Assembly: GCA_963796705.1 (NCBI GenBank)
Contig: CAWCMK010000007.1
Span: 6,641 to 70,640 of the forward strand
DNA: 64,000 bases
Direction: 5' to 3'
Origin: an uncultured Solirubrobacterales bacterium
GTDB taxonomy: Bacteria > Actinomycetota > Thermoleophilia > Solirubrobacterales > 70-9
The position numbers and the translations under genes were made by a program. How positions within the stretch are numbered: the stretch's first letter is position 1; each line of letters starts with the position of its first letter. Positions 9,797 to 42,884 of this stretch are shown one piece after another. Under the pieces are notes generated by a model. The model had not been told where the DNA came from and searched no databases. It saw only the letters and a program-made list of their open reading frames with translations.

Positions 9797-12553
9797 CTAA
9801 CCGCGCGAATGGCGCTTGTGGCGGGCGAGACGGTGCGCCTTCTTGCCGCCGCAGGAAGCCTTGAGTCGCGCGTGCTGCACCAGCGAGCTTCTGTTCTGGC
9901 CTTCGAAGCCGATTTCGATGTTCGGAACGCGGGCGCAGAGGTTCGTCGTGTTGGCGATGTAGCCGCGCGAGCCGCCATAGAGGTTGAAGACGAAACGTCC
10001 GATCGGCACGTCCGGGACCACCGGGACGACGGTCCGAAGCCCGTTCTTGGTCTCCTTCGATTCGGCTTCGGGGGTGACCATGACCTGACCGTTGAGGATG
10101 AACGCCAGGTGCGGCAGCCCGCCGTAGCCGGACACTGCGTAGGCCGGGCCTTTGAGCGGCTGTTCGAGCAGCGGAGTTTCGTCCTTCACCGCGCCGATCG
10201 CGGAGCGCCCTGCGCAGAGGTCCGAGGCGAGTTCCGCCTTCGAGCAGAGATTGCCGAGGTGTTTCTGGTCGACCTCGAACGCTCGGGGCAGGGTGACCCG
10301 CACCGACTTGATGTTCGCATCGCCCTGGTGGGTGTTCAATTCGAAGCGCAGCGCCGGATCGGCGGCTCGGCGGGTCTGCTTCTTCGAACCGTTGAGGCGT
10401 ACCGACATCTTCGGCCGGAAGGGGAGCGTCGCGCAGTCGTCGGCGTGGAAGTAGGAGGAGAATGTGGCCGCTGTTCCCTGGTCACCGACCCCTTCTGAAA
10501 CGACGCTCATCGGCGAGCAGTTGGTTGGGTTGATCATGAAGTTCGAGCGATCGATGTTCACCCTGATTTCACGCATACGGATCGGGATGCCGCCGATGAT
10601 CTCAGGCACCGTTTCCGAGTCGGCGATCACGTGCGCGTCATGCGGGTCGATTTTGAGCGCGACCCGGACCACGACGACGCCGTAGTCGTAAGGGCCCGCG
10701 AGCGCCGGCGTGATCACCGCCAGCGAGAGCGGGGCGCCTTTGAACGGTCCCGACATGTACATCTTGCCAACCGCGTGGAACGGGTGGCTGCCGGGGCCGG
10801 CGGCTACGTTGGAGGTGCCGATCTGGCTTGACGCCGGGCAGCTCGGATTCAGCTGCTCTTCGGTGCCGGACCTATTGGCCGCCTGAAGGATGGCCGCTTC
10901 CGGGCAGTAGGTGATCCCGTGCAGGTTGCCGGTCAGGCCGGGAGGCATGCTGAAGTTGAGCTTGCCCAGGTACTGGTCCCCGTCTTCGCGGTTGAGCTGG
11001 AGCGAGAAGGAGGAGAAGGCGCCGGCCAGGGAATTCGAGGTCCCCGCCGCAAGGGTCGGGTGGAAGGGTCGCACCGAGCCCGGACAGGCAAGACCGTGCG
11101 GGCCACTTTCCAAAACGAAGCCCTGGGTCGAGGTGGCGGTCGGGATGACGTGGTTCCAGGGCACGAACGTGGCCACGGTTTTGTAGTTCGTGCATTCGAT
11201 CGGGGTCGCCACCAGGCCGCGATCTGAGGAGAACAGGTGCACGTCGAAGGAGTCGAACGGGACCTGCGGCAATCCTTCGAAGTAAATGGTCAGCTGCCCG
11301 GTCTTCGGATCGGGTTTGGCCGAGCCGATCAGCTTCGCATGGAGCCCGAAGCCGTCGACGATTAGGAAGAGCCGGTATTGATCACCCGGCTCCGGTTCGC
11401 CGATGTAGATCGAGCCCTGGAGCGGCCCGGAGAGAGCCGGGGTGTGCAGCGCGACCGAGCCGATCTTGGCGCTGTCGGGGCATTCCGCCGGGGCCTCGCT
11501 GTGGAAGTGGGCGAGGGCGTCACTGCAGGCGCTCTGTCCGTCAGCCGCATCGGGGTTGATCGTCAATCCCGGTGGCAAGGTGACGATCGCGTCGTGGATC
11601 GTCGACGGAGAGACCGCGCGTCCGAGGAACTGAGCGTCCTTGAGGATAATGTCAAGGCCCGATGGCGAGTCGGTTTCATTGCTCGTCGGCCGCGAGTAGA
11701 GCAGCGGCTTGAAGAGCATCTTTTCGCAGCCTTCAACTTCGGGGTAGCTGCTGTGGGCTTCGGAAACGTTTTCGGGATCCTGATAGGTCTGGACCTTGAG
11801 CGTCGTCAGTTGTTCTTGCCCGTTGCACTCCGATGGGTTGTCGGTCAGCGGGTGCACGGGGGCACTCACCGGATTCGGCTTCGCGATGCAGCTCGCGTCC
11901 GCCAGGCCCACGCATCCGGACGGGCGGCCGCTGGCCCCCCTCGGGAAGCGCTGGCCTTCGTGGACGTTGTCCGTCGGGAATCCCCAGAAGGTCAGGTCGG
12001 CGCCGGCCAGGGGCGTCACCTGCGTGATCTCGGAAACCTTGAAGTTCAGTCCGTAGTCGCTTCCCGTCCGTACCGAGACCGGAATCTGGATCGGGATGTT
12101 CAACGTCGGGACTATAAAACCGAAGAGAGCCGTCTCAGCTTCGGAGGGTTCGAGGTCATAGATCGGCGCGGTTCCAAGGAGATAGTTCGAGTTGCCTTCG
12201 TAGCGGGCGCGGATCGTGATCAGCCCGGCCTGGGTCGTCGGCGGGCATTCCTCCTGGGCGAAGACGACCGAGGTGCACCGTTCAAGTGAGTTCGGATTGC
12301 CGAAGATGCCTTCGGGCGTTTCCACCGTGACATTCTCGGCCGCCTCCGGAATCCCCGGGCTTTCCAGGGCGAAGGAGGTGTGCAGATCGGGATGACCTCC
12401 GGCCTGGGTCGTCGAGGCTTCCGTCGTGAAAGATTCGATGCCCTCGGTCGCCTGCGCGGTTCCGGCACCGAGTAAGGCGGCGAGAAGCAAGGCCACGCCC
12501 AGGGTCAGCCCGAATGCGCGCAGCATGCCGGTGGTCGATTGTCCAGCGGTCAT
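9797..12553 (-). CDS. Giant secreted protein D (918 aa), paralogue of B, with four Cys-bracketed beta modules and a polybasic C-terminal tail
   Basis: Signal peptide MLRAFGLTLGVALLLAALLGAGTAQA. Conserved with B: TQAGGHPDL, DSPSGLDI, GQLTIYFEGLPQVPFDSF, KGAPLSLAVITPALAGPYDYG. The ATG at 12553 overlaps the stop of C (TGATG) and is preceded by GGGAGG. The protein ends ...KASCGGKKAHRLARHKRHSRG. Confidence 0.85.
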   Translation of the reverse strand: MTAGQSTTGMLRAFGLTLGVALLLAALLGAGTAQATEGIESFTTEASTTQAGGHPDLHTSFALESPGIPEAAENVTVETPEGIFGNPNSLERCTSVVFAQEECPPTTQAGLITIRARYEGNSNYLLGTAPIYDLEPSEAETALFGFIVPTLNIPIQIPVSVRTGSDYGLNFKVSEITQVTPLAGADLTFWGFPTDNVHEGQRFPRGASGRPSGCVGLADASCIAKPNPVSAPVHPLTDNPSECNGQEQLTTLKVQTYQDPENVSEAHSSYPEVEGCEKMLFKPLLYSRPTSNETDSPSGLDIILKDAQFLGRAVSPSTIHDAIVTLPPGLTINPDAADGQSACSDALAHFHSEAPAECPDSAKIGSVALHTPALSGPLQGSIYIGEPEPGDQYRLFLIVDGFGLHAKLIGSAKPDPKTGQLTIYFEGLPQVPFDSFDVHLFSSDRGLVATPIECTNYKTVATFVPWNHVIPTATSTQGFVLESGPHGLACPGSVRPFHPTLAAGTSNSLAGAFSSFSLQLNREDGDQYLGKLNFSMPPGLTGNLHGITYCPEAAILQAANRSGTEEQLNPSCPASSQIGTSNVAAGPGSHPFHAVGKMYMSGPFKGAPLSLAVITPALAGPYDYGVVVVRVALKIDPHDAHVIADSETVPEIIGGIPIRMREIRVNIDRSNFMINPTNCSPMSVVSEGVGDQGTAATFSSYFHADDCATLPFRPKMSVRLNGSKKQTRRAADPALRFELNTHQGDANIKSVRVTLPRAFEVDQKHLGNLCSKAELASDLCAGRSAIGAVKDETPLLEQPLKGPAYAVSGYGGLPHLAFILNGQVMVTPEAESKETKNGLRTVVPVVPDVPIGRFVFNLYGGSRGYIANTTNLCARVPNIEIGFEGQNRSSLVQHARLKASCGGKKAHRLARHKRHSRG

Positions 12554-15500
12554 CACTGTCCTCCCCCACTCCGGCCGTGCGAGCGCCTCTTGCCTTGTCG
12601 GTGCTTACGATGGTGCTTCCTGCGGTGGTGAGGCTTGACGCACTGCCCGTGACGCTTGACCTTGCCCTTGGGGCAGGTCTTGGTCGGTTCGTTCCCGGGG
12701 ACATGGTTGCCGCCGGTGCCGGTGATTGTGTTGACGTTCTGCGGGGCCGGCGTCGGGCTGCTGGCGCCGTGACACTCGTCCGAAGCTTTGCAACTGGGCG
12801 GCGGCGGCACATATGGGAAGCCGCCGTTTTCGCGGGCGTCATAGACCTTGACCAAGCTGCCGTTGATGTCCTGCGGCACCAGCGTGTCGCGGGTGAAGAA
12901 GTAGGCGTCGGTGCCGTCCGCAGTGGCGCTCAGCAGGCTCGTGTTGAAGGGGCTCACGCCGGTCGAGATCAGGCTCGTCTTGCCGTTCTCCCACTCGTAG
13001 ACGTCTTCGCGATTGTCGAGATCACTCGGCACCAGCGGATCGGTCGAGTTGAAGAACACCCGTCCGTCGTCGGTTAGGCTGAGTCCGTTGCGGGCGAGGG
13101 ACGCTTCGCCGGTCGATCGAGCGTTGGTCGGAGTGCACGAGACGCAGGCGAGCCCTTCGCCCGTAGCGTCGTAACGGAAGACCTCGGCGTGCCTGCCGTT
13201 GATGTACCCGGTCAGCGGGATGGTCGAGGTGAAGACCGCGTCGTCCCCGTTCGGGGTGATCTGGAAGTCGCCCGTGTGCCGAGTGCCGCTTTCGTTGACT
13301 GAGTCGACCACCAGCGGGCTATCGGTGCGGGGGTCGGGCGCCAGCACAAGCGGGCCGAAGCTCGCCACGTTCGCGCCTTCGGAGCCGGCGTTGGTCGCGT
13401 ACAAATTGCCGGCCGAGCTGACCGCAACCGACGTCGAGTTGCTGAGTACCTTTGCTCCGACATCCGGCCCGGGAGCCCTGCGGCCGTCGGCGTGGAAGCG
13501 CAGGATCTTGTTGCCCTCATCGACGTACACTTCGTGGCGAGTCGGATCGGCGAACATCTCGGTCGCGTTGGAGACTTCCCCCGCCCCGAATGTTTCCGTG
13601 GGGTTGCATTCCGAGTTGCACGTTGAGCCGTTGGGCAGAATCACGCGGCCGCTGCTGTCGAAGGCGAAGCGCGCGACTTCAACGCCACCGAAGCCGACGT
13701 AGAGCGTGCCCGTGGTCGGGTCGACCGCGACCCCTGTCTTCGGGGGAGATTCGTATTCCCAGGTCGAGATGATGGTCGAGCCTTTGCCCTTCTGCCAACG
13801 CTCGATGTATCCGTAATAGCCCTCGTAGTAGACCCGTCCCTGATTGTCGACTGCGATGCCGATCGGCTGAGGAGCGCCGTCGACGTAGTTCCCGGCAATG
13901 AACGTCCCGTCTTCTTCGTATTCGAAGACTCGGTTGGCCGAGTTGTTTTCCTGGTGAATCGCTATGTAGAGCACGCCATTTGGGCCCACCGCGATCCCGG
14001 CGAATTCGTGGCCGAGGTTGGGTTCGAATTCCCCGTTGTTCTGCCAGCTCGTGATCAGGTGGCCTTCGGCGTCGTACTTGCGGATTACCTGTTGGTTGCC
14101 ATCGGCCACGTAGACGTCGCCGTCTGAGGGCCCGCCGGAGTTATCGACCGCGACGAATTCCGGGTTTTCGGTCGCGCCGAAGGTGCCCTTGAATTGGTGT
14201 TCTTCCAGTGCCGGGTTGGGCCCGGTGGCGCCCGACTCCAGCGTCGAGACGAATTGTGGCGTCGCCGATCCCGGCTGGTGGAGATAGAGATTGGGCTGGT
14301 TGGCCTCGCCATCCTGAGGTTCGCTGCTGCCGTCGAGCAGTTCGGGGCTGAGGAAATAGATGCTGCCGTTTTGGGCGGCGACGCCGCCGCCGCCGCCGAC
14401 AGCGACGGCGTCGCAGTTGGCGGTTGCGGCCGTCGTGTTCCAGTGCTGGTTGACGGAGTTAGGAAGCGGGCTGCAGCTGTCTGAGTTGCCCGAACCGCCC
14501 GAGCCCTTGGAAACGAGGTGCAGGGTGGCCGAGGAGGCTCCGACCTGTGCTTCGTAGACGTCGGCCGAGTTGTCGCTGTCTTCGCCGTTGAGGCGGTCGG
14601 CGGTCGTGAAGTACACCGTGGACCCGTCTTCGGTCATCCCGTCGTAAAAGGCGCCGCTCGTCGTCCCCGGCGTCAGGTCGACGGTTTTCGACGAATCGCC
14701 GATGTTCATGTACAGGTGCCAGTAGCGGTTCCCCTTCGAGTCCTTGGAGATCAGCTGCCCGATCACGACCCGCGAGCCGTCGGCCGAGACGTCGAGCTCG
14801 GCGAGGCCGTCCGAGGTGCAGTCCATCAGGCATGGGATGCTGCCGCCGCCGGGCAGCTTCGAGATAGCGTGGGTCGATTTGGTGGCGAGGTCGCGGTCGT
14901 AGATTGCCGGGCTGCCGGCGCCGCTCTCGAATTCCGAGCTCGAGCCGAAGATCAGGTGCTTGCCGTTGGCCGAGACGGGCTTCTTGACGAGCATGGCCGC
15001 GGTGGCGCTGGGGCCCGCGTTCAGCGATCCGGCCATTCCCTGAACGAGTTCCCCGTTCGGGAGGGCGACCGGAACGCCGGTCGTACCGTCTGCGAAACAG
15101 GGTGAGCAGAGCCCGGAGCCGCCGAAGGCGAAGGTGTCCAGCGAGGCATCGGCCCCGGCCAGCGGCGAGGCGAACGATTCGGCCGAGTAGGGCAGGTTTG
15201 CCGGGATGCCGACGTAGGAGGTGCTCCAGCCGTCAGCACCTCGGGTGGCGACGTAGGGATCGAGGCCGTGGTTCGTCGGGTGTCCGCTGCCCGGGATCGC
15301 GCCGTCGTGAACCCCGTAGAGAACGCGGGTCGGGTCTTGCGCGTCGGGATAGCCACCGAACGGTTCCTGTTCGGCATTCAGATAGGACTCGACGTCATAT
15401 CCGCCGGCGTTCGCCGCGGAGACGAGCTCGTAGGCGCGGCAGTCGGCGAGCAGCGCGGCGCCGGTCTGCTGGCGGACGTGGGCGTTGGCGCACTTGTCTT

Positions 15501-17103
15501 CGAGGACCGGCGTGTAGGGGAACGTCGTGAAAGTCTCTTCGGTGGATTCGGAGGTTCCGCTCTGATTCGTCGCAACGATCACGTAGTGATAGGTCGTCCC
15601 GGCCTGTAGGCCGGTCGCTTTCGTTGTTTCCGCGATCGAGACAAGCCCGGCGCCGACCGAGGGGCTCTCCGGAGTTTCATCGCAGGTTTCCGGTTCCGTC
15701 GTGCAGTCGCCGGTCCCGTAGAGGACGTGGTAGGTCGTCGGCGCGCCTTCCGGTGTGATTTCGAAATGGAAGACGACGCTGTCGGAGTGGACGTCGGTGA
15801 TGTAAGGGTCTTCGACGACCGCCTGTTCGGAGGGAACGACTTCCTGCTCCTTGGTGCGAACGAATCCGTTGCTGTTAGCGACCTTCAGGCGGGTGTAATA
15901 GGTGCTCCCCTTGGTTAGGCCGGTGAGCGTGGCGCTGACCTTGGTCGGTGAGCTCCCGGAGATCGCCTGCCCCCCTTCGCATGGGGCTTCTTCTTCGAAG
16001 TAGATGTAGCCGTATTCGATCACGGTCCCGTATTCGAAGACGCATTCGCTCGTGGTAACGCCGTCGGGGTTGACCGAGGCATCGAGCTTCAAGGAGGTGC
16101 CCGTGATTTCCGACGGCGGTTCGTTCTGGACGTCGGGCAGGGTCACTTGGGTCTGCGGGGAGAAGATGGCAATTCTGTTTTCGTAGGCCAGGTAGTAGTA
16201 GCCGTTGACCCCGTTCATCGCGACCCAGCGCGGTTCCCCTTCATAGAGGAGGCCCGGCAGTTCGTTCCCGTGGGGATCGTATTCGACGCCTTCTTCGTAT
16301 CTGGCGGAGAACACGATCCCGGAGACAGGATCGACGTTGAAGACGTTCGAGAAACCCGCCGGCAGGCTTTCGATCACTTCACCGCTCAGGGTGAACTTCA
16401 TCAACCCGTGGCCTTCGAGCCCTCCCTGGTAGTCGATGAGTTCGTTGTTGGGCCCGGCCTGCAGTCGATAGGAGTAGCCGTACTGGCTCATGTCGACGAC
16501 GTTCCCGGTTTTCACGCCTTCCGGGTTGTATTCGTAGGCACGCTGCGAGAGAGGGGTGCCGGTCAGGAAGAAGTTCCCGGTGACCGGGCTGACCGCCATG
16601 TCGTCGGCGCCGTAGGGCAGCGGGAAGTTTCCGCCGACCGGCGCCCCGCTCGGTTCGAAGGCCCAGACATGGCTATCGATGAAGGAGTAGTCGAGGTAGA
16701 TGCGTCCCTGGTGCGGTCCGCCCGAGTTGTCCACGTCGAGCACCGGAGTCGCGCATCCGCAGGTGTCTTCGGGCGGGACTCCCATGTTGAGCACGTTGGT
16801 GCCATTGGCCGCCGGATCGGTGAACGGCAGGGGTTCGCCCTCCGAGTTGAATTTGAAGAGATTGAGGCCGCTCTGTGTCGTGACGGCGTAGACGTCTCCG
16901 GTCTGCTGGTCAACGGCGATGCTCGAGACTCCGCTCAAGGTGGTCGCCGCCGGCGAGCCGTTGAAATATTTTTCGAATTCGTGAGGCGTGTACTGGACCG
17001 CCTCCGCCGGGGCGGTTGTGCAGAGTGGCACGGCCGTCGCCAGGCAGGCGCCGATGATCGCCAGGCGGATGCGCCGCCCGAGCTTCACTTTCGAACCCGT
17101 CAT
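12553..17103 (-). CDS. Giant secreted protein C (1516 aa), paralogue of A: beta-propeller, Fn3-like, PD40/TolB-like repeats and an extra NHL-like propeller, with a polybasic C-terminal tail
   Basis: Signal peptide RIRLAIIGACLATAVPLCTTAPAEA. Fn3-like signatures (ECVFEYGTVIEYGY, TYHVLYGTG...TTYHYVIVATN). Junction motif CANAHVRQQ...LADCRAYELVS. NHL-like VYVADGNQQVIRKYDAEG. PD40-like DDGRVFFNSTDPLVPSDLDNREDVYEW. C-terminal CKASDECHG plus a K/R/H tail. The ATG at 17103 overlaps the stop of B (TGATG), with AGGAGG 8 nt upstream. Confidence 0.9.
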   Translation of the reverse strand: MTGSKVKLGRRIRLAIIGACLATAVPLCTTAPAEAVQYTPHEFEKYFNGSPAATTLSGVSSIAVDQQTGDVYAVTTQSGLNLFKFNSEGEPLPFTDPAANGTNVLNMGVPPEDTCGCATPVLDVDNSGGPHQGRIYLDYSFIDSHVWAFEPSGAPVGGNFPLPYGADDMAVSPVTGNFFLTGTPLSQRAYEYNPEGVKTGNVVDMSQYGYSYRLQAGPNNELIDYQGGLEGHGLMKFTLSGEVIESLPAGFSNVFNVDPVSGIVFSARYEEGVEYDPHGNELPGLLYEGEPRWVAMNGVNGYYYLAYENRIAIFSPQTQVTLPDVQNEPPSEITGTSLKLDASVNPDGVTTSECVFEYGTVIEYGYIYFEEEAPCEGGQAISGSSPTKVSATLTGLTKGSTYYTRLKVANSNGFVRTKEQEVVPSEQAVVEDPYITDVHSDSVVFHFEITPEGAPTTYHVLYGTGDCTTEPETCDETPESPSVGAGLVSIAETTKATGLQAGTTYHYVIVATNQSGTSESTEETFTTFPYTPVLEDKCANAHVRQQTGAALLADCRAYELVSAANAGGYDVESYLNAEQEPFGGYPDAQDPTRVLYGVHDGAIPGSGHPTNHGLDPYVATRGADGWSTSYVGIPANLPYSAESFASPLAGADASLDTFAFGGSGLCSPCFADGTTGVPVALPNGELVQGMAGSLNAGPSATAAMLVKKPVSANGKHLIFGSSSEFESGAGSPAIYDRDLATKSTHAISKLPGGGSIPCLMDCTSDGLAELDVSADGSRVVIGQLISKDSKGNRYWHLYMNIGDSSKTVDLTPGTTSGAFYDGMTEDGSTVYFTTADRLNGEDSDNSADVYEAQVGASSATLHLVSKGSGGSGNSDSCSPLPNSVNQHWNTTAATANCDAVAVGGGGGVAAQNGSIYFLSPELLDGSSEPQDGEANQPNLYLHQPGSATPQFVSTLESGATGPNPALEEHQFKGTFGATENPEFVAVDNSGGPSDGDVYVADGNQQVIRKYDAEGHLITSWQNNGEFEPNLGHEFAGIAVGPNGVLYIAIHQENNSANRVFEYEEDGTFIAGNYVDGAPQPIGIAVDNQGRVYYEGYYGYIERWQKGKGSTIISTWEYESPPKTGVAVDPTTGTLYVGFGGVEVARFAFDSSGRVILPNGSTCNSECNPTETFGAGEVSNATEMFADPTRHEVYVDEGNKILRFHADGRRAPGPDVGAKVLSNSTSVAVSSAGNLYATNAGSEGANVASFGPLVLAPDPRTDSPLVVDSVNESGTRHTGDFQITPNGDDAVFTSTIPLTGYINGRHAEVFRYDATGEGLACVSCTPTNARSTGEASLARNGLSLTDDGRVFFNSTDPLVPSDLDNREDVYEWENGKTSLISTGVSPFNTSLLSATADGTDAYFFTRDTLVPQDINGSLVKVYDARENGGFPYVPPPPSCKASDECHGASSPTPAPQNVNTITGTGGNHVPGNEPTKTCPKGKVKRHGQCVKPHHRRKHHRKHRQGKRRSHGRSGGGQ

Positions 17104-19850
17104 CAGCCGGTCCTCCTCGCCGAGCTCGCGCGCCTATGTCGGCTGCGGTTGGCTTGTTTGCCACATGACAGGCGGATCTTCGGCCGCGTGTTGGCGCGCC
17201 GATTGCTCTGGCCCGTCATTTCCACTGTCGCCCGCCGGACGTGCGAGCAGAGGTTTTCGGCGCTGGTCTGCAGGAGGCCGCGCTTGCCTCCGAGCAAGCT
17301 CAGCGTGAACCTGGTCACAGGCACGTCGGGGACCGTCTGGAAGCTGGTCCTCAACCCGCCGTTCTTGCTGCTGACGACGCCGTCAAGATTGACATCGACC
17401 TGGCCTTTGAGCGCGGCGAGGACGTCGGGCAGCTTGTGCCCGTACCCGGTGGCGAGGTAGACGGTTCCTTCCAGCGGCTTTTCGAGCAACGGGGATTCGG
17501 CGCGCGCGCTGCCCATCACGGAGTTGGCGGGACAGCTTTCGGCGGCAAATTGGACCTTGGTGCAGGTGTTGCCGATGTGGCCGTTGTCCAGGATCAACGC
17601 TGGCGGCATCGTCACAACGGCCTTCGCGATGTTCGCTTCGCCAGGCTTCGCTGTCAGAGTCGCCGTGAGCGCCGGGTTCTGGGTCCGCTTGTTGCCGCCG
17701 CGGAGCCGCAGGGCGAGCTTTGGCCCGAACGGCAGTTCGGAGCAGTTGGCAGCCTGGAACGGCACCGCCGGGCTGGCTTCGCCTCCCTGGTCCCCGAAGA
17801 CCCGGGCCTGCAGCGAGAACCGGTCGCAGTTGGTCGGGTTGAGAGTAAAACCGGAGCGGTCGAGGTTGATCAGGACCTGCCGCAGCCGCAGCGGGACGCC
17901 GTCGACGATCTGAGGCAAGGGATCGGAGACGGCCGTCAGCTGGGCGCTCGTCGGATCGACATGGATCGCGGCGCGAACCACGACGTTGCCGAGGTCGTAG
18001 GGCCCCGAGACGGCCGGCGTCACGACCGCCAGACTGAGCGGAGCGCCCTTGTAGGGGCCCGCCAGGTAGACCGAGCCCGGCAGGTGCACCGGGTGGTCCC
18101 CGGCGCCGGCGGCGGTCGAGGAGCTCCCGATCCTGGAGCTGGCCGGGCAGCGCTGGCTGGCGAGCTCTTCGAGGCCCGAGACGGTGGTCGAGGCGGCGGC
18201 GAGGGTCGAGTCGGGGCAGTAGGTGACACCCGCCAGGGTGGCGCTGAAACCGGGGGGCGTGGTCACGTCCACCCCGGTCAGGTTCTGTTCGCCGTCAGCG
18301 CGATCCAGGGTCAGCGAGAAGGGAGAGTGCTGGCCCGCGGTCCGGTCGGCGACACCGCCGTGGAAGCTCGAGTTGAAGGAGCGCACGCCATTCGAGCAGC
18401 CGCTACCGCCCGGCCCGCTGGCGAGGGTGAAGTACTGGGTCGAGGTCTGTTCAGAGATCCCGGCGTCCCAGGGGGTGAAGGTGCTGCTCACCCCGTAGGT
18501 TCCACACTGGGTCGGCGTCGCCAGCAAAGCGCGTTCGGACCCGAAGAAGTGCATGTTGAATTCGGAGAACGGGGTTTGCGGCAGATCCTGGAAGGAGATG
18601 GTCAGCTGCCCCGTCCGTTCGTCGGCGATCACCGAGCCCGCCAGCTTGACGTGGACGTTGTAGCCATTGGCGGTGAGGATCAGCCGGTAGCGATCACCGG
18701 GCAGCGGGGTCCCCAGGTAGATGTAGCCGGGTATCGGCCCGGGCAGGGCCGAACTGTTGACGCTCAGGGTCCCGACCTTCGAGTCCTCGGGGCAGTGCGC
18801 TTCTTCGCGGGTACCGATCGAAGCTTCGGCGTTCGAGCAGGAGGTCTTCCCGTCGGCGGCGTTCGGATTGATGGTGAGGCCGGCCGGCAGGGCCACGGTC
18901 GTGCCGCGAATCTCCGACGGCGAGGAGACGTTCGGGCTCGACTGCTGCGGGACCTGGAGGTCGACGTCGAGCCCGGAGGGGCTGTCGGTCGCGGTGCCGG
19001 TCGGCTGCGCGTAGAGGCTCGGGTTGAAGGTCAGCTGGTCGCAGCCCGTGGTCGGCGGGTACGGGGTGGTGGCGTTGGTCACGCCTCTGTCGTAGGAGGT
19101 GATGCTGACGTTGGCCGCCAGGTTCTGCTGGTCGCAGGTCGTCGGATTGCTGAGGAACGCCTTTTCGGGCGCGTTCGATCGGGTCGGTGGGTTCTGGCCT
19201 TCGAGGAACGAGTCCCACCCGGTCGGGAAGCGTTCGGCGTCGTTTTCCGAGGCTGCCGGCACGCCCCAGAGCTTCTCTTCGACGAAGGCGAGCGGCAGGA
19301 GGTGGGTGATGTTGACCGTGGTCACGTCGAGGCCGTAGTCGCTCTCGGTCCGCGAGTTGATCGACTGGAATATCGGGAAATGCAGGAACGGGAAGGTCAT
19401 GCCGATCAGGCCGGCATCGCCCGGATGGGGTTCGAGGTTGTATACGGCGATCAGACCGAAGCCTTCGGTGCCCGGCGGTTCGGCGTTGACGCTGATGGTC
19501 GCCGTCCCGACCTGTGTCTCGGGCGGGCAGTTTTCGGTGGCGAAGTCTTCCGCGTCACAGGTCGGCGTCGCGTGCGGGTCGCCGATCACCCCGGGAGGCA
19601 TTTCGACGTTGATATCCCTGGCATCCTGACAATCGCAGGTGGGAGGAGGGATGTGCTGGGTATAGCGATTTCCCACCCAGACCACGGTTTCGAGATTCGG
19701 GTGCCCGCCGGCCTGGGTGTTCGAGGGAGTCACTTCGAACTGGTAGATCGGGGAGTCCGCGGCAGCGCGCCCCGGCGCCAGTGCGGCGAGCAGGGCGACG
19801 GCGGCGATCGCGGTCGCGCAGAGCACGGGGATGATGCGCTTGCGTGTCAT
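17103..19850 (-). CDS. Giant secreted protein B (916 aa), paralogue of D
   Basis: I take the start at ATG 19850 (MTRKRIIPVLCATAIAAVALLAALAPGRAAA, a clean signal peptide). The ORF-track extension to 20198 overlaps the end of gene A and is low-complexity. Motifs TQAGGHPNL, DSPSGLDV, GQLTISFQDLPQTPFSEF, KGAPLSLAVVTPAVSGPYDLG. The protein ends ...RLSCGKQANRSRHRRASSARRTG. Confidence 0.85.
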   Translation of the reverse strand: MTRKRIIPVLCATAIAAVALLAALAPGRAAADSPIYQFEVTPSNTQAGGHPNLETVVWVGNRYTQHIPPPTCDCQDARDINVEMPPGVIGDPHATPTCDAEDFATENCPPETQVGTATISVNAEPPGTEGFGLIAVYNLEPHPGDAGLIGMTFPFLHFPIFQSINSRTESDYGLDVTTVNITHLLPLAFVEEKLWGVPAASENDAERFPTGWDSFLEGQNPPTRSNAPEKAFLSNPTTCDQQNLAANVSITSYDRGVTNATTPYPPTTGCDQLTFNPSLYAQPTGTATDSPSGLDVDLQVPQQSSPNVSSPSEIRGTTVALPAGLTINPNAADGKTSCSNAEASIGTREEAHCPEDSKVGTLSVNSSALPGPIPGYIYLGTPLPGDRYRLILTANGYNVHVKLAGSVIADERTGQLTISFQDLPQTPFSEFNMHFFGSERALLATPTQCGTYGVSSTFTPWDAGISEQTSTQYFTLASGPGGSGCSNGVRSFNSSFHGGVADRTAGQHSPFSLTLDRADGEQNLTGVDVTTPPGFSATLAGVTYCPDSTLAAASTTVSGLEELASQRCPASSRIGSSSTAAGAGDHPVHLPGSVYLAGPYKGAPLSLAVVTPAVSGPYDLGNVVVRAAIHVDPTSAQLTAVSDPLPQIVDGVPLRLRQVLINLDRSGFTLNPTNCDRFSLQARVFGDQGGEASPAVPFQAANCSELPFGPKLALRLRGGNKRTQNPALTATLTAKPGEANIAKAVVTMPPALILDNGHIGNTCTKVQFAAESCPANSVMGSARAESPLLEKPLEGTVYLATGYGHKLPDVLAALKGQVDVNLDGVVSSKNGGLRTSFQTVPDVPVTRFTLSLLGGKRGLLQTSAENLCSHVRRATVEMTGQSNRRANTRPKIRLSCGKQANRSRHRRASSARRTG

Positions 19851-19881
19851 CACGGGGATCAGCGTCTCGCTTGCGATCTGG

Positions 19882-22800
19882 CTAGGCACGGTTGTTCCCC
19901 CGCTTGTGCTTACGATGGTGCTTTGCCTTGTGCTTCCTCCGCTTCTGCTTGGGCTTCGACTTGTGCGCGCTCGGGTTGGGCGCGTTGCCGCGCGAGCCGA
20001 GGTCGCCTTCGCTGGTGACCGTCGGGGCGGCGGGCGCGGCGTTGCCTTCGCCATGGCACTCATCGGCGGCTTCGCAGGGCGCCAGGGCCGGTTCGTAGGG
20101 GAAGCCGCCGTCGGTGCGGGCGTCGTAGTAGGCGAGGAACGGGCCGTTGTGGTTCTGCGGCACGAGGATGTCGCGGGTCGAGAAGTAGACGTTGACACCG
20201 TCGGCGCTGACCCCCGCGAGCCCTTCTTCGCCGGCGTTGCCGGAGCCGCCGTAAATCGCGTGTCTGGTCAAGGTCGTCCCGGTCCCGGTGGTGATCAGCT
20301 GGGGCCGGCCTTCGGTGTACTCGTAGACGTCCAGCTGTTCGTTGGTGTCGGTCGGGACCAGGGGATCCTTGGTGGCGAAGAACGTCCGCCCGTCGTTCGA
20401 CATGAAGATCCCCATTTTGCTGGCTTCGACGTTGAAGGCCGGGGGCTGGCCGTCGGGGCGGCAGGAGACGCAGATGAGCTTCCGCGCGGCCGGTTCGTAG
20501 GCGTACATCTCCTTGAGGCCCACGTTGTCGTAACCGGTCAGCTTGGTGGTGGTGATGAAAGCCATGTGACCGTCGTTAGGCGAAACCTGCATACGGGTGA
20601 TCGGGCCGTGTTCCCCGCTGGACGGGTTCAACGAGGCGACGAACTGCGGCTCGCCGTTGCGGTAGACGTAGAGGTTCTCCCTGTTCGGCGTCCCCTTCCT
20701 GCCGTCGAGCTGTTCGGGCGAGTAGAAGTAGATTTCGCCGGATTCAGAGGAAATCGAGTTGTCGGTGAGAGTTTCGCCGGTGACCGCCGCGACACCACAT
20801 TGGGTCGTCCAGGTTGCGGTGCATTCGTCGCTGTTGCCGCTGCCTTCGGCTTCGGGCCCGGCTTTCGAGACGAGCGTCAGTTTGTCCCCTTCCTCACTCC
20901 ACATGTAGAGGTCGACGCTTTCGTCGGTGTCTTCGGAGGTGAGCTGTTCCGGCGAGGTGAAGAAAACCCTGGTGCCGTCGGCGGTCATGCCAACGTAGTT
21001 GACGTCTTTTTTGTCCGAGACTTCGTAGGTCACCGCGTCGTTGACCCTCATGTAGAGACGGGTGGGCTTCGGCGGTTCGTTGAAGTGGTTGTAGGGCGCG
21101 CTCGCCGTCGACATCAGGATGTGCGTCCCGTCCGTCGACACACCCGGGTGCGCGGGCGATGCCATCGAACCGTAGCCGTATCCACCGTATTCGGGATTTA
21201 CGCCTGGGAAGAGAATGGCCTCTTCGGTAGCGCTGGTGTTGCCGGGCTCCTGTTGGATGTCTTCGCCGTTCGCATCTTTGGAGATCAGCGCCGTCGTGCC
21301 GGTCGCCGCGTTGTAGTCATACGCCGAGCCGACCCCGGTCGTGAGCCCTCCGGGTGCGAATGCGATGTTGGTCGAGGAAATTGCCAGGTGGCTCAAATCC
21401 GGCGAGGGCTGGAACGCGCCTTTGCTTTCTTCGACATTCGGGATGCTTTCGAAGTTCTGTGGCCACCTTTCCAGCAGGTTTCCTTCACTGTCCCAGACGT
21501 ACGGGATGCTATGGGGCGGCTGCGGTTCTCCTTCGAAGCCACCGTTTTCGCGGAAGTCCAGGAACTTGCTGAAGTTCGCGTTGGCAAATAGCGCGCCTGC
21601 GGCGGTTCCTTCATATCCCCGCAATCCGACCAGGTGGGTTTTCCAGCCGGTGTTCGTGCGGGTCGCGATGTAGGTGTCGGCGCCAAGAGCATTGGTCGGT
21701 TCGGTTCCGTTGACGCCACCGAGGTATCCGTTGAAGGCGAACCTCGGGGGACTGACCGCGTAAGGATCCGCGTCGGGCTCGGCGTTGGTCAGCTCGACAT
21801 TGCCGGTTTCTTCGGGGGAGACGAGCTCAAAGGCGCGACAGTCCGGCAGGTACTGGCTTTCGTTCTGCTGGCGCACGGTCGAGTTAGGGCAAGTCTGCGG
21901 GTAGAAGTTGAAGCTCTGGTCTTCGGTGCGAACCGCACCCCATTTACTTTCGGCGACGACCCTGAAGTGATAGAGAACTCCCTGGAGTTCTGTGAGGTGC
22001 ACCACGACGGCTTCGGAGGCGTTGCCGGCGGGTAGCGTTTGGCTCGGAGTGACCGAGCCATACTGGGTCGTCGGCCCGTATTCGATGTAATAGGTTGTTT
22101 CGAAGCCGTGCGGATTGACCTCTGCGTCGATGTCCGCCGACGTGGCCGTCAGATGGCTGCTCGTGGCGGCTTCGATCGAGGGCAGTTCGTAGGTTTTGAA
22201 GCTCTTATCGGTCCCCTTGGAGACGCCGATCGAGTTTTCGGCGACGACGCGATAGTGATAGGTGAACCCGGGTTCCAGGCCCGTGATTTCGGAGGAGACG
22301 TGGGTCAGTTCCGTCGTCACGCCGGCGTCTTCGCCAGGCGGAATCGCGGTCTTGTGACCGTAGGCGGTGGTCTGGCCCCATTCAAAGTAGTAATGGGTGT
22401 CTTCTCCGGTCCCTTCGTATTTGGCGTTGAGAAGGGCCGAGTTCTGGGTAATTTCCGTAGCCGCTTCGGTGCCAAGGCCTTTGACGTTGTGCGGTGTGAT
22501 GGTCTTGTCGGCACCCCTGCCGATGACGTGCGGTTCACCGTTTGTCAGCACAAGGCGGTAGTGGTAGGTTTCCTCGCCAACGAGTCCCGGCAGGTTCGCG
22601 TGGACCGTCTCTTCGCTTGAAATCGGCGTCGACTCCGAGCAGTTCTGTTTGCTGCCGTAGGCGCTCGTCAGGCCGTATTCGAAATAGCATTCGGTGATCG
22701 GACCGACCCCATTGGGATCCGCAGTGCCGCTCACTTCGCTGTTCCCCGTCGGTTCGCCGGTTGTCGCCTTCGGGGTGGTTAGCCCGAGGTATTCGACTAT

Positions 22801-23730
22801 GTAGCCGCTGGAGCCCGAGCCGATGGTGACGAAGAGGGTGTCGGTCGCTTCGTCGACGGCGAGGCCGTGCCCTCCGTTTTCGGGGAGGGTGATCGTTTCA
22901 ACGAGACTCGCGGTTTCGGTGTCATAAACATTGACAGTCGTGCCGCCGTTGCCAACGTAGAGCTTGTGTTCGGCGTCGTTGACGGCGAGGCCAGGTTCGC
23001 CTGAAGGCGCCGGGAAGCTGAGTTTGGTCGTGTAGCCGCTTTCGGCGGTGAACTTGACCAGCTGGCCGCCGCCGTAGGAGGCGGCATAAACGTCACCGTT
23101 TGCGTGATCGACTGCAAGCTTGCAGAGGCTGAAACCGATTTCGATCGATCCAGTGGCGGTCCCAGCAGCCGAGTATTTGAAGACTTTGTGTTGCGTGTAG
23201 TCGCCGGCCCAGGGTCCGCCACCCGGCCCGACGTCAACGCCGCAGATTTCGCCGCCGCCAGGGATGACGACCGGCCACGGCGCGCCGAGCGCGTTACCGC
23301 TCGAGTTCCAGCCGTAGATCCTTTCGCTGCTGCCGGACTGGACGCCGTAGATGTTGCCGGCCCCCGAGCTTTCCACTTCGATGTCGGGTTCCCCGCATTC
23401 GGTGCTGATCCCGGCACTGAAGGGGAATTTGCCGCCGAGTGGAGTCGCCGATCCGGAGCTGATGGCGAGGCCGTAGATCTTGCCTTCAGAGGCGAGGTAG
23501 AGGTCCCCGGAAGAGCCGTTGTAGGCGATGTGGCAGCCAAAGCCGACACCGCTCGATTTCGGGCCTTCCTTGCCGTATTCGCCGGTGACTTCGGTATGTT
23601 CGCTGGCGAGGCTCTGTGACACCGGCAGGGCGAGCAGCAACCAGGCCGCGGCGCAGAAGGTTGCGACACCGGCGCGCACCGATGCGGTCCTCAGGCGATC
23701 GCCGCGGCCCAGGTTCTCCTCTGCCCTCAA
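19882..23730 (-). CDS. Giant secreted protein A (1282 aa): N-terminal beta-propeller-like region, three Fn3-like units, PD40/TolB-like repeats and a polybasic C-terminal tail
   Basis: TTG start at 23730 with AAGGAG 7 nt upstream. Signal peptide VATFCAAAWLLLALPVSQSLA-SE. Fn3-like signatures ECYFEYGLTSAYG, HYYFEWGQTTAYG, TYYIEYGPTTQYG, each followed by (T/L)YH(Y/F)R(L/V)V. Junction CPNSTVRQQ...LPDCRAFELVS. PD40-like NDGRTFFATKDPLVPTDTNEQLDVYEY. C-terminal CEAADECHG and KSKPKQKRRKHKAKHHRKHKRGNNRA. Confidence 0.9.
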   Translation of the reverse strand: MRAEENLGRGDRLRTASVRAGVATFCAAAWLLLALPVSQSLASEHTEVTGEYGKEGPKSSGVGFGCHIAYNGSSGDLYLASEGKIYGLAISSGSATPLGGKFPFSAGISTECGEPDIEVESSGAGNIYGVQSGSSERIYGWNSSGNALGAPWPVVIPGGGEICGVDVGPGGGPWAGDYTQHKVFKYSAAGTATGSIEIGFSLCKLAVDHANGDVYAASYGGGQLVKFTAESGYTTKLSFPAPSGEPGLAVNDAEHKLYVGNGGTTVNVYDTETASLVETITLPENGGHGLAVDEATDTLFVTIGSGSSGYIVEYLGLTTPKATTGEPTGNSEVSGTADPNGVGPITECYFEYGLTSAYGSKQNCSESTPISSEETVHANLPGLVGEETYHYRLVLTNGEPHVIGRGADKTITPHNVKGLGTEAATEITQNSALLNAKYEGTGEDTHYYFEWGQTTAYGHKTAIPPGEDAGVTTELTHVSSEITGLEPGFTYHYRVVAENSIGVSKGTDKSFKTYELPSIEAATSSHLTATSADIDAEVNPHGFETTYYIEYGPTTQYGSVTPSQTLPAGNASEAVVVHLTELQGVLYHFRVVAESKWGAVRTEDQSFNFYPQTCPNSTVRQQNESQYLPDCRAFELVSPEETGNVELTNAEPDADPYAVSPPRFAFNGYLGGVNGTEPTNALGADTYIATRTNTGWKTHLVGLRGYEGTAAGALFANANFSKFLDFRENGGFEGEPQPPHSIPYVWDSEGNLLERWPQNFESIPNVEESKGAFQPSPDLSHLAISSTNIAFAPGGLTTGVGSAYDYNAATGTTALISKDANGEDIQQEPGNTSATEEAILFPGVNPEYGGYGYGSMASPAHPGVSTDGTHILMSTASAPYNHFNEPPKPTRLYMRVNDAVTYEVSDKKDVNYVGMTADGTRVFFTSPEQLTSEDTDESVDLYMWSEEGDKLTLVSKAGPEAEGSGNSDECTATWTTQCGVAAVTGETLTDNSISSESGEIYFYSPEQLDGRKGTPNRENLYVYRNGEPQFVASLNPSSGEHGPITRMQVSPNDGHMAFITTTKLTGYDNVGLKEMYAYEPAARKLICVSCRPDGQPPAFNVEASKMGIFMSNDGRTFFATKDPLVPTDTNEQLDVYEYTEGRPQLITTGTGTTLTRHAIYGGSGNAGEEGLAGVSADGVNVYFSTRDILVPQNHNGPFLAYYDARTDGGFPYEPALAPCEAADECHGEGNAAPAAPTVTSEGDLGSRGNAPNPSAHKSKPKQKRRKHKAKHHRKHKRGNNRA

Positions 23731-38558: not shown

Positions 38559-40151
38559 ATGGCCACGACACAGACGCGCCCCGCCGCCTCCACCCTTGAG
38601 TCCTTTAACCCCGCCACGGGCGAGCTCGTCGGCTCCGTTGCGACGATCACGCCCGACCAGGTACAGGGCGTGGTCGACGACGTCGCCCGCATCCAGCCGG
38701 CCTGGGCCGAACTCGCGCTGGGCGACCGTGGCCGCTACATGCGCCACACCGCCGAGGCGCTGCTCGAGGAGATCGACGAGATCGCCGAGCTGCTGGTCAG
38801 CGAGCAGGGCAAGCCTCGCGCCGAGGCCTACACGATGGAGTTGCTGCCAACCGTCGACGCCCTGCGCTGGGTCGCGAAGCAGGGTCCGAAGATCCTCGCC
38901 GAGGAGAAGGTCCGCATGTCCCAGGCCTTCCTGGCGAGCAAGAAAAGCCGCTTCACCTACGAGCCGATCGGCGTCGTCGGCGTGATCGCGCCCTGGAACT
39001 ACCCCTGGTCGATCCCCTTCGGTGAGGTGGCGATCGCCCTGATGGCCGGCAACGGCGTCGTCCTCAAGCCGGCCAGCCTGACGCCGTTGCTGGGCGAGGC
39101 GATCGCCCGGGTCTTCGAGAAGGGAGGCCTGCCCGAGGGACTGCTGAGGGTCGTGCACGGCGGCGGCATGGTCGGCGACGCGCTCGCGCGCTCAAGCGTC
39201 GGCAAGATCTTCTTCACCGGTTCGGTCGAGGTCGGCCGCAAGGTCGGTGAGGTCTGCGCCCAGAACCTCAAGGGCTCGGTCCTCGAGCTCGGCGGCAAGG
39301 ACCCGATGATCGTCTGCGCCGACGCCGAGCTGGGCAATGCGATCTCCGGTGCGGTATGGGGTGGCTTTGCCAACGCCGGCCAGACCTGTTCGGGGATCGA
39401 GCGGGTCTACGTCGTGCGGAAGATCGCCGAACCCTTCATCGAGGGGGTCATCGCCGAGAGCGAGCGACTGCGGCTCGGCGACCCGATGCAGTGGGAGACC
39501 GAGATCGGGCCGATGACCTCCCAGGACCAGTATGAGATCGTCGTCGAGCTGATCGAGGACGCCCTCGCCAGCGGCGCGGAGAAGCGCTGCGGGGGGCCCG
39601 CCGAGCTGGCCGGGCTGAGCGGCAAGTTCGTCGCTCCGACGGTCCTCACCGGCGTCACCCACGAGATGCGGATCATGAGGGAGGAGGTCTTCGGAGCGGT
39701 CCTGCCGATCGTCGTCGTCGAGGACGAGCAGGAGGCGATCGAACTCGCCAACGACTCGCAGTTCGGACTCGGCGCCTCGGTCTGGACGAAGGACCGCCAG
39801 AAGGGGGAGCGGATCGCGCGGCGGCTTGAATCGGGGATGGTCTGGATCAACGACCACTCCTTCAGCCACGGCGCCTGTCAGTGCGCCTGGGGCGGAGTCA
39901 AGGACTCCGGGGTCGGCCGCTCGCACTCCAAATTCGGCTTCTATGAGTGCGTCAACATCAAGCAGAACTCCTGGGAGCCCGGACTGACTCGGGACTTCTG
40001 GTGGCATCCCTACGACAGAACCCTGGGCGAAGCCGTTCGCGCCTCGGCGAAGCTGCTCTATGGCAGGGGCGCAACTCGGACCAGGGCGCTGCGCGAAGGC
40101 GCAGGGCCGCTGCTCACGGTCGGCCGCCGGACACTGCGCAAACGCCGCTAG
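38559..40151 (+). CDS. Aldehyde dehydrogenase family protein
   Basis: FFTGSVEVGRKV, LELGGKDPMIV, NAGQTCSGIERVYV, EEVFGAVLPIV. 530 aa with a C-terminal extension. Confidence 0.85.
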   Translation: MATTQTRPAASTLESFNPATGELVGSVATITPDQVQGVVDDVARIQPAWAELALGDRGRYMRHTAEALLEEIDEIAELLVSEQGKPRAEAYTMELLPTVDALRWVAKQGPKILAEEKVRMSQAFLASKKSRFTYEPIGVVGVIAPWNYPWSIPFGEVAIALMAGNGVVLKPASLTPLLGEAIARVFEKGGLPEGLLRVVHGGGMVGDALARSSVGKIFFTGSVEVGRKVGEVCAQNLKGSVLELGGKDPMIVCADAELGNAISGAVWGGFANAGQTCSGIERVYVVRKIAEPFIEGVIAESERLRLGDPMQWETEIGPMTSQDQYEIVVELIEDALASGAEKRCGGPAELAGLSGKFVAPTVLTGVTHEMRIMREEVFGAVLPIVVVEDEQEAIELANDSQFGLGASVWTKDRQKGERIARRLESGMVWINDHSFSHGACQCAWGGVKDSGVGRSHSKFGFYECVNIKQNSWEPGLTRDFWWHPYDRTLGEAVRASAKLLYGRGATRTRALREGAGPLLTVGRRTLRKRR

Positions 40152-42053: not shown

Positions 42054-42884
42054 TCAGCCCCTCACGGCGCAGGTGCGGGTCAGCGTCGCCGAGAGCGAGC
42101 GCCCGTCGGCGAAGGACATCGAGGCGCGAACGAACGGGAAGGATGCCCTCTGCAGGCCCCGCGGCGCGCTGCAGGGAGCCGACAGATAGCTGTGGGATCG
42201 GCCGTGGTAAGCGTAGCTGCGGTGCAGCTTCAGGCTGATCCGCTTCAGGTAACTGAAGCGCGAGAGCGAGCCCGGTACCGAGCCGTCGAGGACGGTCCCG
42301 AATTCACCCGGGCCGCGCTTGATCGCGAAGTCGATCACGCTGGTCGACTGGGCGGGCTGTGTGGTGAAGACCTGGCCGAGGATCGCTTCCCGACCGCCGA
42401 CCTTCGAGTTGAAGGCGAGGATCTTTCCGATCGAGGGGGTCGGGGGCTGGCCGGGAAAGGTGGTCCTCGCCCGGTAGCGGCCGGTGCCGACCAGCGCGTC
42501 GCCGCAGGCCCGCATCGCCTGGGCACTTGTCGCGGCCTCGATCTGCGACCTGCGGCAGATCGGCAGGCCCTGCGTTTCCAGCCTGCCGTTGCGGTTCAGG
42601 GCGATCGTCACGGTCCGCAGGGACGGCGGCTTTTCGCCCGAGAGCGTCCTCACCTTGCCGGCCATCCAGACGCTGATCGGTGCCCGCGAGTCACGCGGCA
42701 GCGCTTTCGGCAAGATGCCGCCGTTGAAGGTGATGAAGAGGTTCCCGCTGGAGCTCAGCTCAGCTCGGGCCAGGGCGGCGGCGACACAGAGCCCGGCGAG
42801 CGCCGCCAGCAGCGCAGCGCCCGCTCGGCGCCTTCGAGGCAGCCACTCAAGCACGCGCCCTGCGAGGGTTTGACTCTTCACCAA
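42054..42884 (-). CDS. Secreted hypothetical protein, apparently a single-module relative of the B/D internal repeat
   Basis: Signal peptide (AALLAALAGLCVAAALARA). The Cys pattern ...LPICRRSQIEAATSAQAMRACGDALVGTG...SLKLHRS...YLSAPC...FADGRSLSATLTRTC resembles the last module of protein D. TTG start, uncertain. Confidence 0.6.
   Translation of the reverse strand: MVKSQTLAGRVLEWLPRRRRAGAALLAALAGLCVAAALARAELSSSGNLFITFNGGILPKALPRDSRAPISVWMAGKVRTLSGEKPPSLRTVTIALNRNGRLETQGLPICRRSQIEAATSAQAMRACGDALVGTGRYRARTTFPGQPPTPSIGKILAFNSKVGGREAILGQVFTTQPAQSTSVIDFAIKRGPGEFGTVLDGSVPGSLSRFSYLKRISLKLHRSYAYHGRSHSYLSAPCSAPRGLQRASFPFVRASMSFADGRSLSATLTRTCAVRG

Follow-up and report, generated by a model that had tools for sequence, protein, structure and literature searches.

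The DNA analysed here, referred to as the window, is a stretch of 64,000 nucleotides from an uncultured Solirubrobacterales bacterium (contig CAWCMK010000007.1 of assembly GCA_963796705.1). Positions 9797–23730 hold an operon of four minus-strand genes, A, B, C and D, in which A and C are paralogues, as are B and D. All four encoded proteins begin with typical signal peptides and end in a polybasic tail rich in lysine, arginine and histidine, and it is this C-terminal element that concerns us here. A preliminary description of the window had drawn attention to the tails, and the sequences and coordinates that it gave for them were correct in all four cases.

Architecture of the operon and its C-terminal tails

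Gene A (19882–23730) encodes a protein of 1282 residues with a signal peptide, an NHL/YncE-like propeller, fn3-like domains and a second propeller-like region; the net charge of its body is −87. As in the rest of the A/C family, the conserved body closes with YDAR..GGFP..C-x-A-x-D-E-C-H-G, the last part of which, CEAADECHG in A (20050–20076), makes up a C-x5-C-H-G disulfide mini-loop. Family members then continue into a linker of 25–35 residues rich in proline, alanine, threonine and glycine, which in A comprises 26 residues (19972–20049) and includes the family's conserved G-x-G-N motif. The polybasic tail of A, SAHKSKPKQKRRKHKAKHHRKHKRGNNRA (19885–19971), follows without a hairpin and has K, R or H at 15 of its last 20 positions. 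Gene C (12553–17103; 1516 residues, body net charge −93) is built similarly, with the mini-loop CKASDECHG at 12766–12792 and the equivalent of the A linker at 12682–12765. Its C-terminal region, KTCPKGKVKRHGQCVKPHH...GGGQ (12556–12681), contains a cationic disulfide beta-hairpin, CPKGKVKRHGQC (12640–12675), which is matched by our hairpin profile A1, and downstream of it a polybasic tail, VKPHHRRKHHRKHRQGKRRSHGRSGGGQ (12556–12639).

In B and D, the final folded domain gives way to the tail directly after its last cysteine. Gene B (17103–19850, 915 residues) starts at the ATG at 19850 (MTRKRIIPVL) and not at that of the overlapping open reading frame (ORF) of 1031 residues. Its last domain cysteine and basic tail read CGKQANRSRHRRASSARRTG (17106–17165), and this tail is weaker than those of A, C and D, with eight K/R/H among the last 20 residues. 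The corresponding segment of D (9797–12556, 919 residues) is CGGKKAHRLARHKRHSRG (9800–9853), starting at Cys902, the partner of Cys874. AlphaFold2 (AF2) modelled D as a chain of beta-sandwich domains (pLDDT 84, pTM 0.72), with the last 14 residues, 906–919, at pLDDT below 50. A fold search with D returned generic multi-sandwich folds only (integrin legs, complement MG domains and adhesin stalks, TM 0.1–0.15), and a profile search of PDB sequences found no solved relative. Pfam and NCBIfam searches of the four proteins gave fn3 and weak propeller/NHL matches in A and C only, and no match in B and D.

The preliminary description had treated a cysteine motif and the tail as a single unit. Our analysis separates them, because the cysteines are paired disulfides of different elements, and what had looked like one motif is three things: the last domain cysteine in B and D, the C-x5-C-H-G mini-loop in A and C and, in C, a separate C-x10-C hairpin. 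The mature A, B, C and D proteins contain 14, 18, 22 and 18 cysteines, and the count is likewise even in 34 of 38 tail proteins and in 119 of 120 D homologues, indicating that the cysteines are paired and not free. The same counts rule out a free cysteine available for lipidation or a thioester.

We found that the C-terminal tag has two parts, an optional cationic beta-hairpin of the form C-x2-G-x5-G-x-C, present in one to three copies, and then a disordered K/R/H run; the tails are between 4 and about 40 residues long. The fuller hairpin pattern, C-x2-G-[FYK]-[VI]-[KR]-[KR]-x-G-x-C-[VI]-[KR], occurs in C and is absent from A. As a regular expression, it matched the proteome of the source genome 19 times; 15 of these matches lie at most 35 residues from the C terminus, and a basic run follows in all 15. 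When the last 135 residues of C were modelled with AF2, the hairpin was the sole confident element (pLDDT 79–89, two short strands), and the linker and tail were coil (pLDDT about 50–70), the region equivalent to the A linker scoring 54–61.

Several smaller features accompany the tags of the A/C family. In relatives, the linker holds a conserved I-x-T-x-x-G-x-G-G-N, of which the 13 copies in the source genome keep only the G-x-G-N core. In relatives P0144–P0262, the motif takes the form P-P-x-I-x-T-[IVL]-x-G-[ST]-x-G-N and lies a few residues upstream of the hairpin or tail. It may act as a docking strand or be a site of recognition; an N-glycosylation sequon was rejected, as N-x-S/T is found in some copies only. 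A polymorphic-toxin-like variable C terminus was rejected as well, the variable part being 30–60 low-complexity residues with no immunity-like gene next to it. A terminal glycine, often within RHG or RNG, is found in 50 of 120 relatives (P0143–P0262), possibly because the next B/D gene, with its overlapping start or ribosome-binding site, constrains the DNA there. Finally, an 18-nucleotide block encoding KHHRKH is identical in the tails of C (12601–12618) and A (19906–19923), with different flanks. These are its only two copies in the genome, and they are explained either by local gene conversion or by low-complexity tracts that converged.

Polybasic ends across the genome and in relatives

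To count such ends genome-wide, we used 3124 ORF-based proteins obtained with our own codon model from the source genome (8 contigs, 3.41 Mb, 67% GC), the gene calls being heuristic. A C terminus was scored as a tail if its last 20 residues contained at least nine K, R or H, at least two of them His, and at most one D or E. Of the 3124 C termini, 53 qualified, against 1.2 expected from the rate inside proteins and 0.85 from shuffled proteins, and none of the N termini of the same proteins did. A signal-peptide-like N terminus was called by our heuristic in 40 of the 53 (odds ratio 6.5, p = 2e-10); the other 13 are mostly fragments of the same families or misses of that heuristic. By simple motif rules, the set divides into 13 A/C-type and 11 B/D-type proteins, about 10 others that have a hairpin and about 15 whose tail is plain, and a few are probably false positives. 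The tag terminates at least eight unrelated extracellular architectures: they include NHL with fn3, the B/D beta-sandwich chain, the DUF5122 (delta-60) propeller, CarboxypepD_reg, PKD with InlB-B-repeat-like domains, an RTX repeat and Big_3_5 (the 802-residue PKD protein was entered as a Pfam query minus two internal repeats), and several further tagged proteins have no Pfam match. The most extreme tail belongs to a 444-residue exported protein without a Pfam match (G000:C4:193964-195298), which ends in a pure His/Lys repeat, HRHHKHKKHHKHKKHHKHKKHHH. Within the window itself, the other signal-peptide proteins (40148–42037, 42054–42854, 43006–43377 and 58621–59241) are tail-less, as the preliminary description had stated.

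The tails have a distinctive composition. Relative to the proteome, His is enriched ninefold, Lys fivefold and Arg threefold, His and Lys both being rare in the proteome, and His alone makes up 18–23% of the tails in the source genome. Large hydrophobic residues are scarce (pooled, 3.7% V, 2.1% L, 0.2% I, 0.4% F, 0% M and 0% W). Consistent with the earlier claim that the tails lack a hydrophobic segment, none was found in 52 of 53 (12-residue window, mean Kyte–Doolittle score above 1.6, last 40 residues), and the single tail preceded by one belongs to an ordinary small membrane protein. The preliminary description had allowed that polybasic ends might be an artefact of GC-rich 3' ends or common on cytoplasmic proteins. 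Tail-coding DNA has a GC content of 66%, compared with 64% for the gene bodies, and the order of enrichment, His over Lys over Arg, is the reverse of what GC pressure would produce; an artefact of this kind is thus ruled out. Cytoplasmic proteins with basic ends were few (ribosomal proteins, Ku, Fpg, NusA and a helicase), ribosomal or nucleic-acid-binding, and their ends were Arg/Lys-rich with almost no His.

The proteins that carry tails are also unusual. Their bodies are strongly acidic: per 100 residues, the median net charge is −6.0, compared with −1.0 for other signal-peptide proteins (p = 3e-13), and the totals run from −25 to −116 per protein. Tail-bearing proteins are larger as well (median 922 versus 346 residues). 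The net charge of the tails is +4 to +19.

We then examined relatives, for which searches returned 648 A/C-family and 1471 D-family matches. In the D family, a basic tail of 4–22 residues follows the last cysteine in 119 of 120 homologues. These tails contain 23% K, 25% R, 12% H and less than 1% D+E, with a median net charge of +7; their pairwise identity is 24% (16% would be expected from composition alone), compared with 49% for the preceding 30 residues. Net positive charge is found in all of them, whereas 22 of 119 have no His and the median number of His is one to two. Among 120 A/C-family members, 108 have a strongly basic end, 90 a hairpin and 118 the C-x4-6-C-x-G loop. In a syntenic operon from another species with the same flanking genes (L096), the tails of A, B and C are almost unchanged, that of A being nearly identical. 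B/D homologues with 35% identity in another family of the order keep K/R-rich tails, a hairpin and tail also close an A-type gene of a lineage farther away in the phylum, and overall the tag persists at 31–36% identity in these two settings. Same-genus relatives have K/R/N-rich tails.

In a third family, delta-60, a basic tail is present in 13 of 13 close orthologues and in 0 of 106 distant homologues from other phyla. Several of the distant homologues end in a type IX secretion system (T9SS) sorting domain at the same end of the protein, so that the tail sits in the place of a localisation module. A lack of conservation in orthologues would have counted against the preliminary description, but nearly all members of the three families keep the tail (119/120 in D, 108/120 in A/C and 13/13 in delta-60). 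Together with the 53 tails found where about one was expected, this bears out its view that exported proteins carry the tail as a genuine C-terminal feature under selection. What is conserved in orthologues is the charge and composition of the tail and not its sequence: the common property is dense, acid-free positive charge at the extreme C terminus of exported, very acidic, adhesin-like proteins.

We used the 34-position hairpin profile A1 to assess taxonomic distribution, and the counts obtained with it are lower bounds. It found 16 copies in the source genome and matches in 14 of 24 same-genus genomes (0–19 copies each). Among 150 genomes sampled at the level of the order, every listed one belonging to the window's own family, it matched one besides the source genome, and in the 16 genomes of other families covered by the search for relatives it gave no solid match and one marginal match (E = 0.008). 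The profile under-counts, as a 400-kb sample of G160, a same-genus genome scored as negative, holds an A–B pair that has hairpin and tails. Per 400-kb sample, exported proteins that end in this way numbered 0–1 in another genus and one in another family, compared with four in each of two samples of the source genome. Of 401 genomes sampled throughout the phylum, just 3 contain the B/D family.

A search of 1.84 billion representative proteins with profile A1 produced only 22 matches at E ≤ 0.001, owing to the shortness of the model (34 positions). They included Solirubrobacterales-type C termini with one to three hairpins, unrelated bacterial proteins with 9–11 tandem hairpins and arthropod TIL domains. 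Among unrelated bacterial proteins, P0121 (1082 residues), P0122 (256 residues) and P0130 (900 residues) contain 5–11 tandem hairpins of the form C-P-x-G-T-[VI]-R-R-x-G-x-C-[VI]-R, and the 11 hairpins of P0121 directly follow a PG_binding_1 domain. No Pfam model covers the bacterial hairpin regions.

Comparison with known signals and surface modules

The preliminary description could match the tails to no sorting signal, and our searches agree with it for both sorting signals and wall-binding domains. Pfam and NCBIfam searches of the C termini of A–D, of eight isolated tails (E ≤ 10) and of ten other tail proteins found no sorting domain, the PEP-CTERM, T9SS Por_Secre_tail, GlyGly-CTERM and Gram_pos_anchor profiles all remaining unmatched. 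SLH, LysM, GW/SH3b, CWB2, WxL and PG_binding_1 had no Pfam match in 14 tail-bearing proteins. As candidate known families, only sub-threshold TIL_2 and EB matches to the hairpin emerged, and these were rejected: the last 16 profile positions of TIL_2 align (16.6 and 15.9 bits, the cut-off being 24), EB scores 12.5 bits, and a single Cys pair is involved. The hairpin shares its cysteine spacing and G-[FY] turn with the terminal hairpin of TIL, EB and EGF-like domains (C-x2-G-[FY]-x5-6-C), but there it is one hairpin of a five-disulfide domain, whereas here it is strongly cationic, C-terminal and bacterial. The resemblance to TIL/EB is one of a mini-motif and not domain homology.

No credible LPXTG-type substrate was found by regular expression in the ORF set or in six frames, nor any among the tail proteins. 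The sole sortase match in the genome (PF04203, G000:C6:6761-7106, on a 9.8-kb contig) is split over two frames (36.8 and 31.1 bits), reflecting either a frameshifted gene or an assembly error. With no such substrates detected and a split sortase gene, another display route would be needed. Sortase signals end in a short basic tail, and the tails described here are basic too, but they are much longer and have a net charge of +4 to +19. More broadly, the tag resembles the LPXTG/sortase, PEP-CTERM/exosortase, GlyGly-CTERM/rhombosortase and PGF-CTERM/archaeosortase systems in being C-terminal and modular across unrelated exported proteins. Those tripartite signals, like the tag, have a basic cluster at the end and often a Pro/Thr-rich spacer before it; by contrast, we found no signature motif, hydrophobic helix or enzyme for the tag, and its basic part is 3–10 times longer.

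The features that charge-based non-covalent surface retention would show at sequence level were found, namely an exported protein, a strongly cationic module and no covalent or membrane anchor. Precedents for wall binding by charge include the S-layer wall-binding regions of Lactobacillus, which act on teichoic acids (PMC11181022), InlB of Listeria, held on teichoic acid (PMC7155027), and CWB2 proteins on the anionic polymer PSII (PMC4973711). The tag appears analogous to these Gram-positive regions in that the protein is exported, there is no covalent bond or membrane helix, and a cationic or polymer-binding module is separable from its passenger. However, the known regions are folded, repeated domains of 50–150 residues with Pfam models, whereas the tag is a disordered K/R/H run of 5–40 residues with at most a disulfide hairpin of 12–16 residues and has no model; the source genome also lacks a classical teichoic acid polymerase.

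Two other groups of molecules offer partial analogies. Thanatin, bactenecin and the 'Rana box' of frog peptides are Lys/Arg-rich, Cys-bracketed beta-hairpins that act as free host-defence peptides and are expected to have affinity for polyanionic surfaces. The hairpin of the tag would resemble them as a short, Cys-bracketed, Lys/Arg-rich loop with a predicted beta-hairpin structure, but it ends a bacterial protein of 400–1600 residues. Mycobacterial HBHA has a disordered Lys-rich C-terminal tail of Lys/Ala/Pro repeats that binds sulfated glycans, and it has no signal peptide. It may be considered similar in that it is surface-associated, comes from an actinobacterium and is polybasic and disordered at its C terminus, although HBHA is a single protein and the tag is common to dozens.

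We found no paper on this tag or on sorting signals or surface-protein display in Solirubrobacterales, and the literature on non-covalent retention and wall binding yielded no polybasic tag. A review of monoderm surface display mentions no cationic, electrostatic or polybasic retention tag, and it calls 'positively charged' a single C-terminal element, the short tail that closes the LPXTG signal (PMC5817068). In Sec transport, positive charge limits the rate, arginine above all; lysine gets through once it is deprotonated, and secreted proteins do not usually contain poly-Lys (PMC9110029). The tails would accordingly be costly to export and are presumably under selection.

Proposed surface retention by charge and competing explanations

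The reading we favour, in which we place middling confidence, is that the tail is a lineage-specific, modular C-terminal tag that binds polyanions and so retains large exported proteins non-covalently by charge, the most likely target being the cell's own envelope. Of the three roles suggested in the preliminary description, electrostatic attachment appears, judged by sequence, to be the best fit. It had also suggested a processing or export tag. If the tail were a true sorting or processing signal that a dedicated enzyme cleaves or transfers, although it lacks a membrane helix, this would agree with its strict C-terminal position, its modularity across families and its occupying the position of the T9SS sorting domain of distant homologues, and the I-x-T-x-x-G-x-G-G-N motif just upstream in the A/C linker would be a possible recognition site. 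We nevertheless consider such a signal, whether sortase-like or otherwise, unlikely. To our knowledge, every tripartite sorting signal needs a hydrophobic segment, and 52 of 53 tails have none; families share no cleavage motif or any other, and in B/D and delta-60 proteins nothing separates the tail from the final folded domain; tails can be as short as 4 residues or as long as about 40, and their sequence drifts almost freely; and in two related genomes no gene for a processing enzyme is conserved beside the operons. The third suggestion, that His-rich tails are extracellular modules for binding Ni, Zn or Cu, or bind in a metal-dependent manner, draws on the ninefold enrichment of His and on the common HxH and HHH runs, such as HKHKKHHKHKKHH on the 444-residue protein mentioned above. 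As a conserved function, this is very improbable, because His is absent from 22 of 119 D-family tails, in which net positive charge is universal, and same-genus relatives carry K/R/N-rich tails instead.

Two further explanations differ in what the tails would bind. In the first, tails would attach to acidic protein bodies, either their own or a partner's, and so drive self-assembly of A/B pairs into a surface lattice, matrix or coacervate instead of attaching to the wall; the extremely acidic bodies (−25 to −116 per protein) and the translational coupling of A-type and B-type genes in pairs, both tailed, fit this idea, which is improbable all the same, since the tag also occurs on single, unpaired proteins of unrelated families and the charge of the tails is small next to that of the bodies. 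Alternatively, the tag may be an adhesive end for external polyanions such as extracellular DNA, humic matter, clay or minerals, fixing the proteins or the cell in the soil matrix. The chemistry would be that of the favoured reading, the relatives do come from environmental metagenomes and uncultured metagenome-assembled genomes, and classical teichoic acid synthesis is missing, but the sequence data look alike for envelope binding and external binding, and the tag lies opposite the adhesin-like passenger domains, where it fits an anchor better than a working tip; we give this explanation, too, a low probability. It is also conceivable that the tails are neutral low-complexity by-products of replication slippage or of the next gene's ribosome-binding site, without any function, as some are plain tandem repeats such as (HKHKKH)n, the 18-nucleotide block is identical in A and C, and the terminal glycines of 50 of 120 A/C proteins may come from start/stop overlap with the next gene. 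This is the least credible of the alternatives: the tails are confined to exported proteins and to C termini, exclude acidic residues (less than 1%), persist at 31–36% identity across families, occur on the last genes of operons as well, show no GC bias and carry positive charge that costs export (PMC9110029).

For polyanion-binding retention at the envelope, we propose the following course of events. The proteins would leave the cell through Sec, a pathway suggested by the ordinary N-terminal signal peptides that are seen. Outside, all cysteines would pair, and the C-x2-G-x5-G-x-C unit, where present, would form a small, rigid, cationic beta-hairpin, as the even cysteine counts and the AF2 model suggest. 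The last 5–40 residues would remain disordered, with a charge of +4 to +19 from Lys and Arg, up to 12 titratable His and almost no Asp or Glu, and this polycation could then bind a polyanion multivalently. Candidate ligands are peptidoglycan carboxylates, wall glycopolymers attached by LCP proteins, of which the genome encodes two as wall-polymer ligases, and the head groups of anionic lipids or lipoglycans, and possibly extracellular DNA and mineral surfaces. The very acidic passenger (about −6 per 100 residues) would be repelled and point outward, with the Pro/Ala/Thr-rich linker of A and C as a spacer. The preference for His and Lys over Arg, together with the terminal position, may lower the cost of export through SecYEG, and it may also strengthen binding at acid pH. 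A bolder form of this proposal, which is possible but to our minds doubtful, is that the tag is an unrecognised polycationic anchor for surface display, free of helix and enzyme, whose titratable His and Lys at the very end of the chain pass SecYEG largely uncharged and gain their full positive charge only in an acidic wall or soil, so that giant acidic adhesin-like proteins are held in a pH-gated and reversible way, and which serves as the main display route of a genus apparently without sortase substrates.

Several observations weigh against retention at the envelope. A metagenome-assembled genome is all that is known of the organism. The trait belongs mainly to one genus, with a patchy occurrence beyond it, and does not represent a general solution for the order. 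In the L096 operon, the tail of the D orthologue (10001–12727) is cut to five residues, SARRK, so that a long tail is not always required. Our signal-peptide heuristic over-calls, labelling 1030 of 3124 ORFs, and a classical polyol-phosphate (TagF-type) teichoic acid polymerase (PF04464) is absent from the genome. Mutual exclusion of tails with lipoproteins was not significant (2/58 versus 45/567, p = 0.30); the test is underpowered, and we set this line of argument aside.

If the tag is a retention device, it would mark a whole surface proteome, about 50 proteins per genome, in an order that is seldom cultured, and it would cover hundreds to thousands of metagenome relatives that databases now list only as 'hypothetical protein'. 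A profile of hairpin plus tail would improve their annotation at once. Such tags run contrary to the rule that secreted proteins avoid the positive runs that stall Sec (PMC9110029) and are thus natural test cases for it, and a helix-free sequence of 20–40 residues able to attach proteins to Gram-positive surfaces would make a convenient tool for display.

The genomic surroundings of the tagged genes have features of their own. The operon has a GC content of 62–67%, compared with 67–73% for most of the remaining window, and tail-bearing genes average 64% across the genome, against a genome mean of 67%. Outside the window, contig C3 (30–200 kb and 340–516 kb) contains a large variable island with at least 10 A–B gene pairs, many truncated or fragmentary copies (at about 57–74 kb and 107–109 kb) and interspersed toxin–antitoxin-like small gene pairs. 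The window genes at 42054–42854 and 58621–59241 represent two small, tail-less signal-peptide families that recur beside A/B clusters, at G000:C3 positions 50257, 87739 and 155620 and at 56561, 156460 and 179402. Members of one family have about 260 residues and end in ...F.DG..L......C.VRG, and those of the other have about 170–215 residues and end in ...Y.C.YPLV[RH].

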